From Gemmatimonadales bacterium (lineage in GTDB: Bacteria; Gemmatimonadota; Gemmatimonadetes; Gemmatimonadales; GWC2-71-9): a stretch of DNA of 64,000 bases. How positions within the stretch are numbered: position 1 is the first letter of the stretch; every line of letters starts with the position of its first letter. Of the stretch, positions 19,473 to 59,798 are shown piece after piece. Location: the NCBI GenBank assembly GCA_039934355.1, contig JBDTMI010000010.1, positions 15,481 through 79,480 on the forward strand. The letters run 5' to 3'. The notes under the pieces are model-generated. The model was not told the DNA's origin. It saw only the letters and a program-made list of their open reading frames with translations, and searched no databases. Both the position numbers and the translations under genes were made by a program.

Positions 19473-20545
19473 GTGAGGTAGGCCTGCGCCAGCTGGCGGT
19501 AGAAGGTCCGCGCCTCCGACACTTCCGGAAGATCGACATACTCATCGGGTGTGTGCGAACGGCGGCTGGTCCCCGGCCCGCACTTGATGGCGTCGCGGTC
19601 ACGCAAGAATACCCAATCGGAACAGGTGGGAGAACCAAACGTCTTTGACCCGGGGCGGAGCCGCCGCGCCAGGGCAAGGAGCCGCGAATCGGCCGGTGTC
19701 TCGCACGGGACCAGGCGGTCCGACGTCACCTGGACCTCGACATCCAGCGCCGCCCCGAGCGCCTCGGCGAGCTCCGCGTGGGTCCAATTCGGTGTGCTGC
19801 GGACATCGAGCACCGCGCGCGCCACCGGCGGCGTGACATTCCGGCTCACGCCCCCCTCGAGCATCGTTGGCGTGGCGGTCGCGACGCCAAGGATCGGGTG
19901 CACCCGGTTCCGGAACAGCTCAGGCAGCTTCGCGACGTTGCGGCTCAGTTCGACGATCGCGTTGGTGAAGTCCGGATTGTCCGCCGCATATCCGGCGTGG
20001 CGCTGCAGGCCGCGGGCCACGAGATCCACCATCATCAGGCCGCGCTGCGCTATGGCGATATCGAGGTTGGTCGGCTCTCCCACGACGGCGGCGTCGATGG
20101 CGCCGAGGCGCTCGACGGCGGTGCCCATCGTCGTATTCCTGGTTTCTTCCTCGTAGCCCAGCACGACCAGCAACCGCCCGCGCGCCGGCCCGCCTGATTC
20201 GGCGAGGTCCCGCGCCGCGATGAGCATGCTCGCGACGGAGGCCTTGGCGTCACCGGAACCGCGGCCGTAGAGCCGGTCGTCCTCCAACGTCGGCTCGAAC
20301 ACCGGGCGGGTCCATCCCTCACCCGCCGGGACGGTATCGAGATGGGAGACGAAAGCGAGTGTCGGCCCGGGAGCGGTGCCAGCGACCGCGATGCTGACGG
20401 CCGCGTCGTCCCGCATCACGCTGAGGCCGGCGTGCCTGGCCCACTCTTCCACCCACCGTGCGATCGTCTCCTCGGTGCCACTCACCGAGTGCAGGGAGAC
20501 CAGGTCACGGAGGAGGACAATTTCAGGTCGCGAGGTCCACTCCAA
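19469..20545 (-). CDS. argE: M20 deacylase of the arginine cluster (ArgE-like; acetylornithine or acetylcitrulline deacetylase)
   Basis: M20 motifs SHLDTVP and GRGSGDAKAS are present. It lies between argB and argH with an ATGA overlap to argH. The TTG start overlaps the argB 3' end by 23 nt. Confidence 0.7.
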   Translation of the reverse strand: MEWTSRPEIVLLRDLVSLHSVSGTEETIARWVEEWARHAGLSVMRDDAAVSIAVAGTAPGPTLAFVSHLDTVPAGEGWTRPVFEPTLEDDRLYGRGSGDAKASVASMLIAARDLAESGGPARGRLLVVLGYEEETRNTTMGTAVERLGAIDAAVVGEPTNLDIAIAQRGLMMVDLVARGLQRHAGYAADNPDFTNAIVELSRNVAKLPELFRNRVHPILGVATATPTMLEGGVSRNVTPPVARAVLDVRSTPNWTHAELAEALGAALDVEVQVTSDRLVPCETPADSRLLALARRLRPGSKTFGSPTCSDWVFLRDRDAIKCGPGTSRRSHTPDEYVDLPEVSEARTFYRQLAQAYLT

Positions 20546-21464
20546 GATAGGTCGCCTTCTCCTTTCGCCCGACGATCATGGTGCCGAACCCCGCACCGGT
20601 GAAGACTTCCAGCAGCAATGAATCCGGTGCGCGTCCATCGATGATGTGGGTCCGCTCGACGCCGCCGGTCGCCGCCCGGATGCAGGCCTCGACCTTGGGG
20701 CGCATGCCGCCGGAGAGACTGCCGCTCTCCATGAGGCTCGCGAGATCATCCGGATCGGCGAAGGTGACGAGACTGGAGGCATCGTTCCGGTCTCGCAGCA
20801 CCCCCGGCGCCCCGGTGAGGAAGATCAGCTTCTGTGCCTTCAGGGCGACGGCCAGCGATTCCGCGACGGTGTCGGCGTTGACGTTGTAGACGTTGCCGTC
20901 GCTGTCACCCGCGAGACTCGCCACCACGGGGACGAAGCGCGCATCCAGCAGCGTGATCAGCACCCGCGGATCGGCCCGGACGATGTCGCCCACATGCCCG
21001 TAGTCCACCGTCCGGCTCACGCCGGCATCGTCCGTGACCATGACCGGCGGGCGACGCTGCGCCGTGAGCAGGTCGCCATCCACACCGGAGAGCCCCACCG
21101 CCTGGATATCATGGGCCCGAAGGGCGGACAGCAGGTTCACGTTGAGCGAGCCGGCGTAGACCATCTTGGCCACTTCAAGCGCCGCGTCGTCCGTGACCCG
21201 CCGTCCGGCCACCATCTGCGGCTCGCTGCCGAGGCGACGGGAGAGGGCGCTCGCCTGGGGCCCGCCGCCATGCACGACGACCACCCGGATGCTGAGTGAC
21301 GAGAGCAGCCCGAGCTGGCCGGCCACACGATGGAGCGCCTCAGCGTCGGCGAGGACGTCGCCGCCGAGCTTGACGACGAAGGTGTGATCCCGATAGGCCC
21401 GCACGTAGCGGAGGGCGCCCTTGAGGCCGGCGATGCCTTTGGTGGTGTCGATGGTCATGAACAC
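20523..21464 (-). CDS. argB: Acetylglutamate kinase
   Basis: FVVKLGGDVL, VVVHGGGPQ and NVNADT are AAK-family ArgB motifs. The start is GTG 21464 or ATG 21458. Confidence 0.9.
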   Translation of the reverse strand: MFMTIDTTKGIAGLKGALRYVRAYRDHTFVVKLGGDVLADAEALHRVAGQLGLLSSLSIRVVVVHGGGPQASALSRRLGSEPQMVAGRRVTDDAALEVAKMVYAGSLNVNLLSALRAHDIQAVGLSGVDGDLLTAQRRPPVMVTDDAGVSRTVDYGHVGDIVRADPRVLITLLDARFVPVVASLAGDSDGNVYNVNADTVAESLAVALKAQKLIFLTGAPGVLRDRNDASSLVTFADPDDLASLMESGSLSGGMRPKVEACIRAATGGVERTHIIDGRAPDSLLLEVFTGAGFGTMIVGRKEKATYLGVDLAT

Positions 21465-21484
21465 GGGTTGTTGAATGGTGGAGA

Positions 21485-21528
21485 GCCGACAGCCATCAGC
21501 CGTCAGCCGTCAGCCGTCAGCCGTCAGC
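21485..21528. repeat. 7-bp tandem array: six units of GCCGTCA (+ strand), equal to TGACGGC on the sense strand
   Basis: The units are gccgaca gccatca gccgtca x4 gc. It fills the argF'-argB spacer, abuts the argF' stop codon and ends 20 nt before the argB start. Confidence 0.9.
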
Positions 21529-22544
21529 TACTTCACGCTCAGCAGTTCCAGAAGCAATGCCCGCTGCACGTGCAGCCGGTTCTCCGCTTCATCCACGATG
21601 ACCGACGACGGGCCGTCAAGCACCGCATCGTCGATCTCCACATTGCGCCGCACCGGCAGGCAATGCATCACTGCCGCCTTGCCTCCGCGCGTCGAGCGGA
21701 GGCGCTGCGCCGTGAGGCGCCAGTCGCGCAGGTCGGCGCGCCCGGCCGCTTCCGCCACCGGGTCTCCGAAGTGCTTGAGCGAGCCCCACGACTTCACGTA
21801 GACGACGTCGGCCCCCACCACCGCTTCGTCCGGGTCCGGAATGATGTGCACGAACTCGCCACCCTGCGCCTGCGCGATCTTGCGGATGAGCGCCGTATCC
21901 TCGGGATCGAGTTCGTACCCTTCCGGTCGCGCGATCACGACCTCCATTCCAAGATGCGCCGCGGCCAGCGCCGCACTGGCGGGCACCGCAGTCGGCAGGG
22001 CCTTGGGATGCCAGGCCCACATCAGCACGAATCGCTTCCCCTGTGGCTGGCCGAGCTTCTCCCTCATGGTCAGCGCATCGGCGAGCTGCTGGCAGGGATG
22101 CCGGCGCACCGACTCCATGTTGATCACCGGCTTTTCACAATAGCTGGCGAAGTCGCGCACCACGCGATCCTCTCGAGCCTCGGCCCAGCTCCCGCCGCGG
22201 GGAAACGAGCGGATGCCGACGACGTCGGCATAGCGTCCCAGCACCTGCGCCGCATCCCGGATATGCTCGACCGTTGTTCCGTCCATCACGGCCCCCGGCT
22301 TGGTCTCGAGGGTCCAGCTGCTGCGTCCCGGCTCCAGCACGATTCCGTGGCCCCCATGGAGAAACATGGCGGTCTCGAAGCTGGTCCGGGTGCGCATGCT
22401 CGGATCCAGGAATACCATCGCCATGACCTTGCGCTCGAGGCCGCCGAGGACCTCGCCGCGCTTGATCTTCGCCGCGAGCAGCAGCAGGGCATCGATGTCG
22501 GCGGAGGTCCAGTCCTCGACGGTGATGAAGTCCCGTTTGGTCAT
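21528..22544 (-). CDS. argF: N-acyl-L-ornithine carbamoyltransferase (AOTCase/SOTCase type, argF')
   Basis: It has SMRTRTSFE in place of the OTCase STRTR, HPCQ and HCLP motifs. The N-terminal FITVEDW...AAKIK pattern is typical of acetyl/succinyl-ornithine transcarbamylases. Confidence 0.8.
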   Translation of the reverse strand: MTKRDFITVEDWTSADIDALLLLAAKIKRGEVLGGLERKVMAMVFLDPSMRTRTSFETAMFLHGGHGIVLEPGRSSWTLETKPGAVMDGTTVEHIRDAAQVLGRYADVVGIRSFPRGGSWAEAREDRVVRDFASYCEKPVINMESVRRHPCQQLADALTMREKLGQPQGKRFVLMWAWHPKALPTAVPASAALAAAHLGMEVVIARPEGYELDPEDTALIRKIAQAQGGEFVHIIPDPDEAVVGADVVYVKSWGSLKHFGDPVAEAAGRADLRDWRLTAQRLRSTRGGKAAVMHCLPVRRNVEIDDAVLDGPSSVIVDEAENRLHVQRALLLELLSVK

Positions 22545-23704
22545 GCCAGCACCTCCGCGAGTGCCGCGAGCAGGAGATCGGCCTCCTGGCGCGAAAAGGT
22601 CAGCGGCGGCAGCAGGCGCAGGATCGCCGGGTCCGCCGCCGTGCCGGTGAGGATACGATGCCCGAACAGCGCCCGCTGCACCTCGGCCGCGGGCCGCGCG
22701 AGACGGAGGCCCAGGAGCAGACCTCGGCCCTGCACGTCGATCACCTTCGCCGGGCCGAGCTGCCGCGCGCCGGTGGTGAGGTACGATCCGACGTCACGCA
22801 CATTCGCCAGCAGTCCTTCATCCTCGAGGACATCCAGTGTGGCGAGCGCCGCCGCGCAGGGCACCGGGCCACCGCCGAATGTGCTGCCGAGATCTCCGGT
22901 CGTGATGGTGGCGGTGACCGCGTCGGAGGCGACGACCGCGCCGATCGGCATGCCGGACGCCAGTCCCTTCGCGAAGGTGATGATGTCCGGGACGACGCCG
23001 AAGGTTTCCGCCGCGGTGAAGTGCCCGGTCCGCCCCACGCCGCACTGCACCTCATCGTAGATCAGCACGACGCCGTGCTCGGTGCAGAGCTCCCGGATGC
23101 GGCGCAGAAAGGCCGGATCACACTCCCGGGCACCGGCCATTCCCTGCACCGGCTCAAGAATCACGGCGGCGACCGCGGGATTGATGGCGCGCTCCAGTCC
23201 CTCGAGGCGGTTGAACGGGACCTTGTGACTCAGCGGCATCCCAGCCCGCAACGCGCCCTCCTCATATTTGGCGCCATCTGTCACCGCGAGACAGGCGACG
23301 GTACGACCGTGCCAGCCGCCCTGCAGCGAGACCATCGGCTTGCGCCCGGTATGCTTGCGGGCGAGATGCATGGCGTTCTCGTTCGCTTCCGCGCCGGAAT
23401 TGCAGAAGAAGGCGCGCGACAGCGGCGCGGGACACTGGTCGACGAGGCGCACCGCCAGTCGCTCACGATTGGGGTGCGGCACCGCGGTCGAGTAGAACAG
23501 CAGCCTCGCTGCCTGCTCGGCGACGGCCCGGACGACGGCCGGGTGCGAATGTCCGGTGGAGGAGACGGCGTGTCCTCCGTAGGCGTCCAACCATCGCTCT
23601 CCGGCATCATCAACCAGCCAGGACCCCCGGCCCGAGACCGGCCGCACCGGGAACTGGGCATATACCGGCAGCAATGCGGAGGCTTGCGCAGCGATCTCAG
23701 GCAT
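22541..23704 (-). CDS. argD: Acetylornithine aminotransferase (class-III PLP)
   Basis: It has GGHAVSSTGHSHP, a DEVQCGVGRTG-type motif and TFAKGLASG with the PLP lysine. I prefer the ATG at 23704 (MPEIAAQ), which has a GGAG RBS. Confidence 0.85.
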   Translation of the reverse strand: MPEIAAQASALLPVYAQFPVRPVSGRGSWLVDDAGERWLDAYGGHAVSSTGHSHPAVVRAVAEQAARLLFYSTAVPHPNRERLAVRLVDQCPAPLSRAFFCNSGAEANENAMHLARKHTGRKPMVSLQGGWHGRTVACLAVTDGAKYEEGALRAGMPLSHKVPFNRLEGLERAINPAVAAVILEPVQGMAGARECDPAFLRRIRELCTEHGVVLIYDEVQCGVGRTGHFTAAETFGVVPDIITFAKGLASGMPIGAVVASDAVTATITTGDLGSTFGGGPVPCAAALATLDVLEDEGLLANVRDVGSYLTTGARQLGPAKVIDVQGRGLLLGLRLARPAAEVQRALFGHRILTGTAADPAILRLLPPLTFSRQEADLLLAALAEVLA

Positions 23705-23722
23705 CCGTCGCACTCCAAAGAA

Positions 23723-23764
23723 GCCTTCAGCGTTCAGCATTCAGCCGTCAGCCGTCAGCCGTTA
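23723..23764. repeat. 7-bp tandem array, about six degenerate units of GCCGTCA
   Basis: The units are gccttca gcgttca gcattca gccgtca gccgtca gccgtta. It ends 18 nt upstream of the argD start. Confidence 0.85.
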
Positions 23765-23770
23765 ATTCAG

Positions 23771-23879
23771 GCTGTCATCCTGAGGGAGCGCAGCGACCGA
23801 AGGATCTCTTGGACCCGGAGCCAGACTCAGGGATCGGCTCCGAGACAAAGAGATCCTTCGCTGCGCTCAGGATGACAGC
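23771..23879. repeat. Palindromic intergenic element (GCTGTCATCCTGAG...CGAAGGATCTC and its inverse), REP/MITE-like
   Basis: The left arm is 23771-23808 and the right arm is 23850-23879, the reverse complement of the left arm with an 8-nt indel. A nested stem cggagcc/ggctccg sits in the loop. A second copy lies at 45998-46157. Confidence 0.85.
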
Positions 23880-23966
23880 AAATCCTGATATGTACGTCCC
23901 GCCGTTCTCCCGCCCACCCGCCCAACCGCCTAGCCGCCCAATCGCCACCGTCATCTCGATCCCAAC

Positions 23967-44468: not shown

Positions 44469-44554
44469 GCGATTGGGCTGTTGGGAGGAGAATGCTGTAC
44501 CATGACGGCCGAAGGCCAATGGCCAACGGCTGCCTCCGCCTGTATTCTCTCCCC

Positions 44555-45877
44555 ATGACGATCACCTATCGCAGGACACTCGGTCTCTTCTCCGGGACCA
44601 TGGCCGTGGTCGGGGGCATCATCGGTTCCGGCATCTTCAACAATCCCGCCATCGTTGCCGCCAGAGTCCATACCCCCGGCCTGACGCTGAGCGCGTGGGT
44701 CCTCGGCGGCGTCATCGCGGTGGCTGGGGCGTTCTGTTTCGGTGAATTGGGTCAGCGACGGCCGAAAGCGGGGGGCGGATACGTCTACATCCGTGAGGCT
44801 CTCGGCGCGCTGCCGGCCTTTCTCTATGCCTGGTCACTGCTCCTGGTGATCGCGACCGGCGCAATCGCGGCGGTGGCGGTCACCTTCGCCAACTACACCC
44901 TGCCGCTGCTCGGCCTCGATGCGCGCTGGGCGCTGCCACTCGCGGCGGGAGCGATTCTCCTCCTCACCGCCGTCAACTACATCGGCATCCGTCCGGGGGC
45001 CATCACCACCAACATCTTCACCCTGCTCAAGCTGCTGGCGCTGGGGTTCCTGATCGTGGCGGGACTGACCGCGACGGGGCTCACGGTGCCGACGGCGGAG
45101 CCGGTGGCGGCGCCGACCAACCCCATCTTCGCGATGGCGGCCGCGTTAGTCCCTGTGCTCTTTGCCTATGGCGGGTGGCAACAGACCAATTTCATCTCCG
45201 AGGAAATGGTCGACGCGGAACGGAATCTGCCGCGGGCGTTGCTGCTGGGCGTCGGGATCGTGGTGCTGGTCTACGTGCTGGCCAACCTCACCTACCTTCG
45301 CGCGCTGGGTGCCGCGGGACTCGCGGCCAGCACGGCCCCCGCTGCGGATGCCATGCGCGCAGTGCTGGGGGAGACTGGCGCCAAGCTCATCGCGCTCGGC
45401 ATTTCGGCGTCGACGTTCGGGTTCCTGAACCTGGTGATCATGGTCTCGCCGAGGGTCTATCAGACCATGGCGGCGGACGGGCTGTTCTTCCCGGCATTTG
45501 CGCGGCTCACCCCGAAGTTCCGTACTCCGGGCACGGCGATCCTGGCGCAGGGCGGCTGGGGCGTGCTCCTGCTCCTCACCGGCACCTATGGGGCGCTGCT
45601 CGACTACGTCGTCTTCTGCGACTGGATCTTCTTCGGGTTGGCGGTAGTGTCGCTCTTCATCCTGCGGAAACGGGACATGGCGACGGGCGTTGTCGATCCG
45701 CCGGGAGCGTTCCGGGTGCCGCTGTGGCCGTGGCCGGCGGTGCTGTTCGTCGCGGCGTCGCTCTATGTCATGGCGGGCTCGGTGCTGTCGAATCCGTTCA
45801 ACGCGCTGTTGGGGAGCGGGATACTGGCGTTAGGGGTACCGGTGTTCCTGTTCTGGCGGGGGCGAGTGGGCGGGTAG
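44555..45877 (+). CDS. APC-family amino-acid permease
   Basis: About 12 TM helices are present. The N-terminal GTMAVVGGIIGSGIF motif is typical of the APC superfamily. Confidence 0.8.
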   Translation: MTITYRRTLGLFSGTMAVVGGIIGSGIFNNPAIVAARVHTPGLTLSAWVLGGVIAVAGAFCFGELGQRRPKAGGGYVYIREALGALPAFLYAWSLLLVIATGAIAAVAVTFANYTLPLLGLDARWALPLAAGAILLLTAVNYIGIRPGAITTNIFTLLKLLALGFLIVAGLTATGLTVPTAEPVAAPTNPIFAMAAALVPVLFAYGGWQQTNFISEEMVDAERNLPRALLLGVGIVVLVYVLANLTYLRALGAAGLAASTAPAADAMRAVLGETGAKLIALGISASTFGFLNLVIMVSPRVYQTMAADGLFFPAFARLTPKFRTPGTAILAQGGWGVLLLLTGTYGALLDYVVFCDWIFFGLAVVSLFILRKRDMATGVVDPPGAFRVPLWPWPAVLFVAASLYVMAGSVLSNPFNALLGSGILALGVPVFLFWRGRVGG

Positions 45878-45997
45878 CGGCGGGCCTCCCTGCCCGCCGT
45901 GGGCGGTTGAGGGCGGCCGAAGCGCCTTAGGAGCGGCGAGGCCGCGACTCGGCGCGAGGGAGGGGCGGTTGGGCGGAAGGGCCAGGTGAATGTAGTG

Positions 45998-46157
45998 GCT
46001 GTCATCCTGAGGGACTCCGAGCGCAGCGAGGGAGGACCGAAGGATCTGCTTCGGACCAGAGCAGATCGTTCGCTGCGCTCAGGATGACAGGAACAACAGC
46101 GAGATTCCTTCGCTGCGCGCACGACAGGCTCTTCGCCCCGTTGATTTTTAGGATGAC
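45998..46157. repeat. Second copy of the GTCATCCTGAG...GAAGGATC palindromic element, opposite orientation, plus an extra solo arm
   Basis: The left arm is 45998-46049 and the right arm is 46061-46090. An additional degenerate arm lies at 46101-46157 (gagattccttcgctgcgcgc...aggatgac). Confidence 0.8.
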
Positions 46158-46164
46158 ACCATTT

Positions 46165-46192
46165 GCTGACGGCTGACGGCTGATGGCTGAAC
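46165..46192. repeat. 7-bp tandem array GCTGACG x about 4 (reverse complement of the arg-operon arrays)
   Basis: The units are gctgacg gctgacg gctgatg gctgaac. It ends 17 or 26 nt upstream of the GNAT start candidates (46210 or 46219). Confidence 0.85.
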
Positions 46193-46218
46193 CCGATATC
46201 CCCTACACGATGCCCCCC

Positions 46219-46752
46219 ATGCCCACGATCCGCCTTGCCACGCCTGACGACGCTGCCGCAATCGCCGAGGTCTACCGACCGGCGGTGCTCGACGCGGCAA
46301 CGACCTTTGAGGAGATCCCGCCCGACGCGGCGGAGTTTGTTCGCCGGATCGAGAGGGTGTTGCAGCGGACGCCGTGGCTGGTGTGGGAGGACGGCAGCGC
46401 CATCTTGGGCTACGCCTATGCGAGCCCGCATCGTGAGCGATCGGCCTATCGCTGGACGGTCGAGACATCGGTCTACGTGGCCCCGGGGCAGCAGCGGCGC
46501 GGGATCGCGCGCGGGCTCTATCTGGAGTTGTTCCGGCGCCTCACGGAGCAGGGGTTCGTCAATGCGCTCGCCGGGGTTCTGCTGCCCAATCCCGGCAGCG
46601 TGGCGCTGCACGAATCGCTGGGGTTCACCCGGGTGGGGATCTACCCGGGGGTGGGCTACAAGCGCGGGGTGTGGTACGACACGGCGTGGTACTCCCGCGG
46701 TCTGGGGCCGCGGGTGGGTGGAGGAGTGGATCCTGGGCTCAGTAGGGCCTAG
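46219..46752 (+). CDS. GNAT N-acetyltransferase (phosphinothricin/MSO acetyltransferase-like)
   Basis: IRLATPDDAAAIAEVY...TFEE.PP, the acetyl-CoA loop QQRRGIARGLY, and LHESLGFTRVG are present. The start could also be 46210 or 46183. Confidence 0.8.
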   Translation: MPTIRLATPDDAAAIAEVYRPAVLDAATTFEEIPPDAAEFVRRIERVLQRTPWLVWEDGSAILGYAYASPHRERSAYRWTVETSVYVAPGQQRRGIARGLYLELFRRLTEQGFVNALAGVLLPNPGSVALHESLGFTRVGIYPGVGYKRGVWYDTAWYSRGLGPRVGGGVDPGLSRA

Positions 46753-57270: not shown

Positions 57271-59798
57271 CCCGACGGGTCCCGCAGCATCGGAACGTGG
57301 GTCGGGGGAGACGGTCGGCTCGCTCCGCTGTCCGGGACGCCGTGCGTCTCGCGCAGATCCTGGCCGATGCGCCCATCGGCATTTTTGAAACCGACGTGAC
57401 CGGCCGCTTTCGTTACGCCAATGCCCACTGGTGCACGCTGACCGGACTCGACCTTGAGCGGGCGCGTGGCGCGGGCTGGATCGCGGTAATCGAGCCGGAG
57501 GATCAGCAGGGCGTGCGGGCGGAGTGGCAGGCCGCCGCCATGGACCGCCGTCCGTTCGTCGCGGAGTTTCGCATTCGGCTGGCCGAGGGGGGATTTCGCT
57601 GGCTGGGCGCGACCGCGCAGGCGGTGGTCGACGGGCTGGGGTGCGTCACCGGATACGTCGGTACCCTGACCGATGTGAGCGATCGCAAGCACGCCGACGC
57701 CGAAGTGTACCGCTACTCGCTCGACGTGGAGGATGCGCGGCAGCGGGTGGAAGAACAGGCCGGACAGCTCGCGGGGCAGACCGAAGAACTCGCCACGGCG
57801 CGAGACGCGGCCCTCGAAGCGGTGCGGATGAAGTCGGCATTCTTCGCGATGATGAGCCACGAGATCCGGACCCCGATGAACGGCGTGATCGGGATGACGG
57901 GCCTGTTACTCGACACCGCGCTCTCCGTCGAGCAGCGGACATACGTCGAGACCGTGCGGGCCTCGGGCGAGGCCCTGCTCACCATCATCAACGACATTCT
58001 CGACTTCTCCAAGATTGAAGCGGGACGGTTCGCACTGGAGGAGGTCGACTTCTCGCTGCGTGAAATGCTGGAGGACACGCTCGATCTGATGGCGGAGACC
58101 GCGAGCGCCAAGAGGGTCGAGCTCGCGGCGTTGGTCGAGCGCACTGTCCCGGACATGGTTCGCGGCGACCCGGCCCGATTGAGGCAGGTGGTGACCAACC
58201 TGGTAAGCAATGCCGTCAAGTTCACCGACCGTGGTGCCGTCACCATCCATGCGTCACTGGTGGGCGGTCCGGACCATGGGCAGCTGGTGCGGTGGGAAGT
58301 CACCGATACCGGCATCGGCCTGACGCCGGAACAGCAGAGCCGGCTCTTCCAGCCATTCTCGCAGGCCGACGATTCCACCACCCGGCGATACGGCGGTACC
58401 GGCCTCGGCCTCGCGATCTGCCGCCAGCTGGTCGAGCTGATGGGCGGAACGATCGGAATCGAAAGTGCCGAGGGCGCTGGAAGCACGTTCTGGTTCACGG
58501 TGAAGCTCACCCCCGGCACCCCGGACGCGGGCGGCGCGATCCTCATCGACCCCGACCTGGCAGGCCTGCGGGCACTGGTGGTGGAAGGTCAGCCGACCCG
58601 GCGGGCCGCGCTGGTGGACCAGCTCGAAGCGTGGGGCTTTGAAGCGACCGGGACCGACGATGCCGCGGAGGGGTTCAACTTCCTGGGCGATGCCGCGGAC
58701 CGGGGCCAGCCATTCCGTATCGCCATCCTCGATGCGTCGCTCGACGAAACCGATGGGCTGGAGCTGGCTCGCGCCATCGCGGAGAGCACCGGGCTTGCCC
58801 GTACCCACGTCCTGCTTCTGGCCGATCTCACCCGCCGTGATGTGCAGCAGGCGGCGCGCGATGCCGGCGCCGCCGGTGTCGTGAACAAGCCGGTGCGACA
58901 CCAGCAACTGCATGATGCCGTACGCGTCGCGCTCGGGTTCGCCGCCTCCGGCCGCGATGAGGTTCAGCACGGGCGGGCGAAGAATGAGGGGCGCCCAGCC
59001 GCAAGAGCGCGCATCCTCCTCGCGGAAGACAATCCCGTCAATCAGAAGGTCGCCATCCGGATGCTGGAGAAGATGGGTCACCGGGTGGACGTCGCCGGCA
59101 ACGGGCTCGAGGCGGTGCGGGCGGCGCGCGACCTGCCCTACGACGTGATCCTGATGGACTGCCAGATGCCCGAAATGGACGGCTACCAGGCGGTGGCGGA
59201 GATCCGGAAGCTCGAGGGCGCCGCCCGACACACGCCGATCATCGCCATGACCGCAAACGCGATGGCGGGCGATCGTGAACGCTGCCTGCAAGCGGGAATG
59301 GACGATTACGTGGCCAAGCCGGTCCGCACCCCGGAACTGATCGCCGCGCTCGCACGCCATCTCGGCGCAACGAACACCGTGGAGGCATCGGCGGCGGTGC
59401 ATGCCGTCGAGACGCCAGCAGTGCCTGTCGAGGTGGATGACGGTATCGACGAGACGATCCTCGGCGAGATCGCCGATTATCTGGGCGACAAGGGGCCATC
59501 GATGGTGCAGGAACTGGTACGGCTGTTCTTCGAGGAGTCGGGGCGGCGGCTGGAGGCGATGCGTGAGGGCGTCACTCAGGCCGACCCGGCACAACTCGCC
59601 CGCGGAGCCCATGCCATGAAAGGTGGCGGCGGCAATCTCGGCGCCATCCGGCTCTCGGCGTACTGCGAAACGCTGGAACGGATGGGCCGTGAGGGATCGA
59701 CGGAGGGTGCGGCGGCGCTCGTGGACCGGGTCGCCGCGGAGGTCAACCGCCTGCGCACCGTCTTCGCCCGTCGGAGCGCCGCGCAGCCGGCGTCTTAG
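57267..59798 (+). CDS. Hybrid sensor histidine kinase PAS-HisKA-HATPase-REC-REC-HPt (paralogue of the preceding gene)
   Basis: It has the H-box [31 protein letters not shown] domains and an HPt (HAMKGGG). An ATGA overlap joins it to the upstream kinase. Confidence 0.85.

Follow-up and report, generated by a model that had tools for sequence, protein, structure and literature searches.

Three heptamer arrays and their gene neighbourhoods

Three short arrays of the heptamer GCTGACG stand close upstream of start codons in a 64,000-nt stretch of DNA, here called the window (contig C10), from a soil-type bacterium of the Gemmatimonadales with a genome of 4.06 Mb and 66.9% GC. The question that they raise is whether such arrays act on the gene that follows or whether their placement belongs to a more widely dispersed repeat. 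The arrays themselves are real: reading of the sequence and TRF both place them where an earlier note on this DNA had put them, and the sense strand of the next gene reads GCTGACG at all three, as that note had said. The gene names also hold, namely ArgB, argF', an ArgD-type transaminase, ArgC and a GNAT protein of the ArsN1b/PPT type.

Array 1 (21484..21528, minus strand) has a period of 7, 6.4 copies and 92% matches by TRF, and reads on the minus (sense) strand as four GCTGACG units together with GCTGATG and GCTGTCG (+GCT). It occupies the whole spacer between argF', encoding N-acetylornithine carbamoyltransferase (21528..22544, minus strand; NF003384, 406.7 bits against a cut-off of 288), and argB, encoding acetylglutamate kinase (20523..21464, minus strand; TIGR00761, 220.7 bits). 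The argF' stop overlaps the array, whose first G also closes the TAG codon (21528-21530). Array 2 (23722..23762, minus strand, 5.9 copies by TRF) is a mosaic of the units TAACGG, CTGACGG, CTGACGG, CTGAATG, CTGAACG and CTGAAGG, and ends 18 nt 5' of the ATG (23704) of the argD-type acetylornithine transaminase gene (22541..23704, minus strand) and 5-6 nt 5' of a GGAG. Array 3 (46165..46190, plus strand, 3.7 copies by TRF) consists of two GCTGACG units, GCTGATG and GCTGAAC upstream of a GNAT acetyltransferase gene (ArsN1b/phosphinothricin-acetyltransferase-like; 46210..46752, plus strand; NF040504, 200.6 bits, slightly below the cut-off of 210), and ends 18 or 27 nt from two candidate ATGs (46210 and 46219). 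An ATG within array 3 (46183) makes the GNAT ORF look longer than it is.

End-to-start distances of 17-26 nt had been given for these arrays. Their closeness to the starts stands, at about 18-28 nt, but the 20 nt given for argB needs correction. Relatives' ArgB alignments begin at residue 3, which corresponds to an ATG at 21458, and by this comparison the true argB start is likely to be that ATG and not the GTG at 21464; the gap between array 1 and the start is then ~26-28 nt.

None of the three arrays has an inverted partner arm. The predicted fold of the array 1 spacer is not unusual against shuffled sequences (z = -1.19), neither a hairpin nor a T-run of an intrinsic terminator was found at any of the three arrays, and Rfam covariance models at the gathering score gave 0 matches in the whole 64,000-nt window.

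Other repeats share the spacers of arrays 2 and 3, each of which lies 3' of a ~100-nt GTCATCCTGAG palindrome. One copy of this dispersed element (TGTCATCCTGAG...CTCAGGATGACA; 23774..23876, no strand assigned) sits immediately 5' of array 2 when read along the gene, and a second (46001..46088, no strand assigned) is 5' of array 3, with an extra partial arm at ~46100-46157. The arms of the element read TGTCATCCTGAG...GAAGGATC and GATCCTTC...CTCAGGATGACA. The genome holds 20 full copies and 156 half-site matches, and 8 of 170 CTGA-core arrays (described below) lie within 25 nt of a copy. The same palindrome occupies the argF'-argB spacer in several other species (L017, L035, L047 and L061). The stop-proximal repeat of the array 2 spacer is a G-rich octamer array (sense TTGGGCGG-type; 23910..23946, minus strand), ~20 nt past the argC stop, and a second G-rich octamer array (GGGCGGTT type) lies in the array 3 spacer at ~45960-45985, ~90 nt past a permease stop. 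Genome-wide, GGGCGGTT-type octamers in the G-rich orientation lie near stops (median -1 nt), and those in the C-rich orientation lie near starts.

A genome-wide family of intergenic heptamers

The three arrays have many counterparts in the genome. Two or more GCTGACG units occur at 141 loci in a loose scan, and period-7 chains of at least three units built on the CTGA core number 170 genome-wide, against 0-31 chains for control cores and 0 for six unrelated permutations of the CTGA core; a reversed-pattern control gave 0 matches in 41 genomes. All but three of these CTGA-core arrays (167/170) lie outside genes. Period 7 is itself over-represented, with 539 arrays by TRF, 73% of which fall in non-coding DNA, which makes up 9.7% of the genome, whereas arrays of periods 6, 9 and 12 are just 4-6% intergenic. 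Counting all families, the genome holds ~600 intergenic 7/8-nt arrays, and about 15-22% of the gaps of at least 20 nt between genes contain one. In both its tandem units and its concentration of period 7 in non-coding DNA, the family agrees with heptanucleotide intergenic repeats of the LSSR/STRR type.

The main unit families are GCTGAAC, GCTGACG, GAGGAGT, GCTGAAT, GGCCAAC and the octamer GGGCGGTT, and many arrays combine related units in phase, as mosaics. Within mosaics, the unit types seemed at first to follow a fixed sequence (CCAACGG, CTGACGG, then CTGAAYG), a rule that was dropped when counter-examples were found. Contig ends hold 25 of the 170 CTGA arrays, including the longest, of 7-11 units (e.g., C28:1-55, C75:1-74, C115:1-56 and C61:1-36); the repeats break the assembly, and copy numbers are therefore underestimates.

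Arm polarity and hairpin architecture

An inverted partner lies within 200 nt of 73 of the 170 CTGA arrays (43%), and in 72 of these 73 the arms follow a single order, (NNTCAGC)n...spacer...(GCTGANN)n. Where both arms have at least three units, the TCAGC-first order prevails by 25:0. The opposite order would fold equally well, so the polarity is real. Arm order is likewise fixed within each unit family (48 pairs), every family having its own stop-proximal and start-proximal orientation. Candidate universal rules for the composition of the first arm (G-rich, purine-rich or stop-free) were considered, and none fits all families; a G-rich-first order is seen in 31 of 43 pairs.

Where the sense strand reads TCAGC, the arm begins close behind the stop codon, at a median offset of 7-12 nt (KS p<0.001). 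Arms that read GCTGA on the sense strand end a median of 37-48 nt before the start codon, with a range of 6 to >100 nt, distances that are approximate because gene starts, like the non-coding fraction, were predicted with our own codon-usage gene caller. Within their spacers, the GCTGA-sense arms are placed no differently from uniform (KS p=0.11). The fixed distance to the start that the earlier note had read from three cases thus dissolves in the genome-wide sample, with its median of 37 nt, its range of 6 to >100 nt and its uniform-like placement.

In co-directional gaps, 53 CTGA arrays are GCTGA-on-sense and 40 are the complement, a difference that is not significant, and the GCTGA arm faces the nearest gene boundary of either kind, starts by 49:15 and stops by 54:24. 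The orientation is therefore not specific to starts, as had been supposed. Close to starts it is nevertheless non-random: arrays within 30 nt of a start are GCTGA-on-sense by 22:2, and single arms by 12:0. The genome-wide census that the earlier note had called for accordingly bears out part of its proposal of a non-random cis module, namely the biased orientation near starts, but gives neither a fixed distance nor an orientation reserved for starts, since the arms face stops as well. The three-of-three orientation in the window is a true regularity, but one of element geometry and not of start codons.

Paired elements form strong predicted hairpins, with a median length of 93 nt, a median dG of -42.5 kcal/mol and a z-score of -6.1. 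Those read as examples elsewhere in the genome have no T-run. The interiors between arms are varied and include terminator-like hairpins and palindromic elements. Unit-by-unit mirror symmetry between the arms, the expected mark of templated copying or of strict selection for pairing, is absent (25 observed vs 25.5 expected, p=0.72), which indicates that selection for perfect pairing is weak. The paired-arm hairpins are most likely transcript 3'-end or intercistronic structures that would serve in termination, 3' protection or RNase III processing. Such a role is not directly applicable to the three arrays in the window, as they are unpaired and the fold of the array 1 spacer is ordinary.

Turnover among relatives

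Three consecutive GCTGACG units occur in only 6 of 41 related genomes, five of them congeneric. The argF'-argB junction was compared across 76 species, of which 37 have no array, 34 have period-7/8 arrays and 5 have other palindromes. Of the 37 array-free junctions, stop and start codons overlap in 8, and a spacer of 14-40 nt separates the genes in 19. The 34 array-bearing junctions draw on a wide variety of units and include 16 with inverted arms; in this survey the arrays often start on the stop codon itself. Judged from these alignments, the idea that argB requires an array is not supported, with 37 of 76 junctions array-free and 8 of those having overlapping codons.

The three closest species (L001, L002 and L003) are at about 83% DNA identity. 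At the argF'-argB junction, six units in the window compare with two in L001, a GCTGAAC/GCTGACG mosaic in L002 and a GGGGAAC hairpin in L003. Perfect units at this junction number 6, 2 and 3 across species, a between-species variation that fits slippage and thereby agrees with the earlier description of the 7-bp unit as slippage-prone. In L002 and L003, the ArgF' reading frame enters the heptamer array, which supplies the last residues and the stop codon. The array upstream of argD is retained in position and orientation in the same two species, between flanks of about 83% identity, in the form of a CCAACGG/CTGACGG/CTGAACG mosaic whose end lies ~8 nt short of the SD. The array 3 locus (window 44519-46752 compared) is not syntenic in four congeners (L081-L084), which have no orthologous site. 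In these congeners, a convergent gene is found instead, after a short repeat-free gap; in the window, the spacer upstream of the GNAT gene is 305 nt long, filled with repeats, and adjoins a permease-like gene. Exact-flank scans of metagenome contigs returned no strain variants of the locus.

A slippage-prone 7-nt unit whose copy number varies between species is also what would be expected of contingency (phase-variation) loci, in which changes in unit number switch or tune the expression of a neighbour, and the 25 arrays at contig ends could reflect length heterogeneity, or simply repeats that cannot be assembled. We consider this explanation improbable for the arrays described here. Their neighbours are housekeeping genes of all kinds, here those of arginine biosynthesis, the arrays are neither inside reading frames nor between promoter boxes, and ~600 arrays per genome far exceeds any known contingency set.

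Possible cassette-like elements

The strict arm order (72:1, and 25:0 for the longer pairs) and the family-specific polarity are as expected of terminal inverted repeats, and the arms could accordingly be the ends of insertion cassettes, i.e., of a mobile or formerly mobile IVS-like hairpin element that would at times carry a small gene, with single arms as footprints or half-elements. One locus outside the window could represent such a cassette. A gene for a PF05635 protein (23S rRNA intervening-sequence protein; G000:C1:57841-58207) lies between two arms (57815-58376), a GTTCAGC arm that begins 4 nt past the upstream stop and a seven-unit GCTGAAY arm that ends 13 nt before the next ATG, and in sequence these arms appear to behave like the ends of an inserted cassette. 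The varied interiors between arms elsewhere, and an argF'-argB junction that is filled or empty depending on the species, are in line with the same explanation. However, neither a link to a transposase nor target duplications nor a conserved interior could be found for the arrays, one of the three PF05635 genes has no arms, and the arms are mosaics that differ in unit order. Orthologous arrays also gain and lose units in place, which fits slippage and not transposition. On balance, an origin of the three arrays as solo terminal repeats seems unlikely.

Of the other PF05635 copies, the second (C24) has a AATCGCCC octamer arm on its start side and the third (C34) is the one without arms. Two weak matches to the Y1 transposase family PF01797 (G000:C113:331-549 and C59:5989-6222; 29 and 24 bits, cut-off 23) are possible RAYT-like genes.

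A broader version of this explanation treats the polar arms as terminal repeats of widespread, undescribed hairpin cassettes, related to rRNA intervening sequences, processed as double-stranded RNA and punctuating operons, whose solo arms beside start codons, such as the three in the window, would have become 5'-leaders by co-option. The 72:1 arm order and the 22:2 bias close to starts would both follow from it as well, and we regard it as a somewhat more doubtful proposal than the cassette origin itself.

Promoter and translation signals

The earlier note had proposed an internal promoter with CTGACG as its -35 box for the downstream gene. CTGACG matches TTGACA at 4 of 6 positions, and some genes in this genome seem to be leaderless, with TAnnnT at -12. 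Yet a sigma-70 scan came up empty at all three arrays, and TAnnnT lies 16-18 nt beyond the last unit in 0 of 78 start-pointing arrays. Array density is 0.64 per kb in convergent gaps, 0.41 in co-directional gaps and 0.25 in divergent gaps (chi-square p=0.0045). A promoter or leader element would be expected to show the opposite trend; the arrays are rarest in divergent gaps, which hold promoters only. Array 1, moreover, is internal to an operon, and in homologous operons the genes often overlap. An internal promoter is thus largely refuted in silico and would be a very improbable explanation for the arrays.

Across 1773 upstream regions, TAnnnT peaks at -15 to -12 before the predicted starts in ~110 genes, which suggests leaderless mRNAs in this genome, and GGAG peaks at -12 to -9 in ~257 genes; many genes have neither GGAG nor TAnnnT. 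A special mode of translation behind the arrays, also raised earlier, finds no support in the frequency of SD-like sequences, which is like that of other genes (21% of genes behind arrays vs 30%, p=0.24).

A more serious alternative is a 5'-UTR or intercistronic RNA element after the model of the Beggiatoa TAACTGA repeats, in which (GCUGACG)n would be a platform to which a post-transcriptional regulator binds, or a standby site for ribosomes, in control of the downstream gene. Several observations point this way: the GCTGA-on-sense orientation of arrays within 30 nt of a start (22:2; singles 12:0), the retention of the argD-upstream array in L002 and L003, where it ends ~8 nt before the SD, the lack of an SD-like sequence between array 1 and argB, and a CTGA core with stops in three frames that is common to TAACTGA, itself found in forward orientation upstream of starts in Cand. 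Maribeggiatoa (PMC4679880). The remaining evidence is harder to reconcile with such an element. The arms face stops too (54:24) and are densest in convergent gaps, their distances to starts are broad (6 to >100 nt) and uniform-like, and the downstream SD frequency is not unusual. Furthermore, 35 of 41 relatives lack (GCTGACG)3, one in two orthologous junctions is array-free, and no candidate binding protein was found. We therefore hold a dedicated leader role to be a minority possibility, with a probability as low as that of a cassette origin.

Relation to known repeat systems

The REP and BIME sequences of enterobacteria are dispersed intergenic hairpin repeats at gene 3' ends or between cistrons and are thought to stabilise the upstream mRNA; an individual REP is one ~35-nt palindrome and is associated with RAYT transposases. 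The repeats described here are similarly dispersed, intergenic and hairpin-forming, but they are tandem 7-nt arrays, and the only candidates for RAYT-like genes are the two weak Y1 transposase matches.

A closer likeness is to the intergenic heptamers described by Rehm et al. in 2015 (PMC4692102), with the units GGGAATC in Xanthomonas and GGGGAYT in Nostoc. These are ~90% intergenic, typically comprise 3-6 units, and often form inverted pairs whose arms keep a fixed order, one orientation lying within 50 bp past stops on the sense strand and the complement upstream of ORFs; they are under-represented between divergent genes, and no function has been established for them (PMC4692102). The present family shares the inverted pairs (73 of 170), the proximity to stops (7-12 nt) and the depletion in divergent gaps. 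It differs in that GCTGACG has no G3-4 tract, its longest run being GG and only across unit junctions; in the absence of G-runs, the G-quadruplex idea of Rehm et al. cannot apply to these units. Further differences are the slightly C-rich rather than G-rich stop-proximal arm of the CTGA family, the many unrelated unit families within one genome, and the phylum, Gemmatimonadota.

The second close parallel is the set of TAACTGA direct repeats of marine Beggiatoaceae, some cyanobacteria and Bacteroidetes described by MacGregor in 2015 (PMC4679880). They comprise 2-6 copies with mosaic variants, point forward toward a nearby start, and in some cases overlap the upstream stop; in Cand. Maribeggiatoa, most sets end one to a few nucleotides before the start, and only one inverted repeat is present (PMC4679880). 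The CTGA core, stops in three frames, mosaics, near-start forward orientation and stop overlap (array 1) recur in the present family. Its units (GCTGACG, GCTGATG, GCTGAAC and GCTGAAT), however, have only the CTGA core in common with TAACTGA, and in contrast to Cand. Maribeggiatoa the median distance to the start is 37 nt, 43% of arrays have inverted partners and stops are faced as often as starts. This mixed start/stop pattern resembles that of Microcystis in the TAACTGA paper (PMC4679880).

A third parallel is the class of long simple sequence repeats (LSSR, 5-11 nt) surveyed by Mrazek, Guo and Shah in 2007, which, as summarised in PMC4679880, are intergenic, sporadic across lineages and proposed to originate by slippage, heptanucleotides being the commonest class. 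Polarity, hairpin architecture and Gemmatimonadota are not part of the survey as it is summarised there. A full-text literature search found no published description of such arrays in Gemmatimonadota. The arrays are a lineage-specific unit of a known class of repeats, that of Xanthomonas, Nostoc and Beggiatoaceae.

Origin and significance of the arrays

Taken together, these observations suggest that the three arrays are probably unpaired GCTGA-type arms of a lineage-specific, slippage-prone family of heptamer microsatellites of the LSSR/STRR kind. We likewise think it reasonably likely that they are ordinary members of this family and not a purpose-built promoter or start-site module. The family would have colonised non-coding spacers across the Gemmatimonadales genome, with (NNTCAGC)n arms settling just past stop codons and (GCTGANN)n arms across the spacer, nearer the following gene; elements with both arms would fold into long hairpins of ~93 nt and ~-42 kcal/mol. 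Growth of an array may continue until it reaches sequence that is under selection. On one side, that bound would be the upstream stop codon, which the array can even supply (array 1), and on the other it would be the translation-initiation region of the next gene (arrays 2 and 3). Growth bounded by the initiation region would account for gaps of 18-28 nt in front of the start codons without any start-site module. For argB, argD and the GNAT gene, the lone arms found in the window are probably of little or no specific consequence.

Two sets of facts bear on this interpretation from opposite sides. The positional rule observed here matches that of the published Xanthomonas and Nostoc heptamers (PMC4692102), which speaks for arrays as spacer filler, whereas the 22:2 orientation near starts and the retention of the argD array would also fit a role in the 5'-UTR. 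Slippage alone explains neither the fixed arm order nor the period of seven.

In practical terms, such arrays break assemblies and can mislead gene calling into spurious start codons and spurious C-terminal extensions. More broadly, this class of repeats is still without an explanation for its 7-nt period and for its strict arm polarity at gene ends, and the genome studied here gives clean numbers for both.
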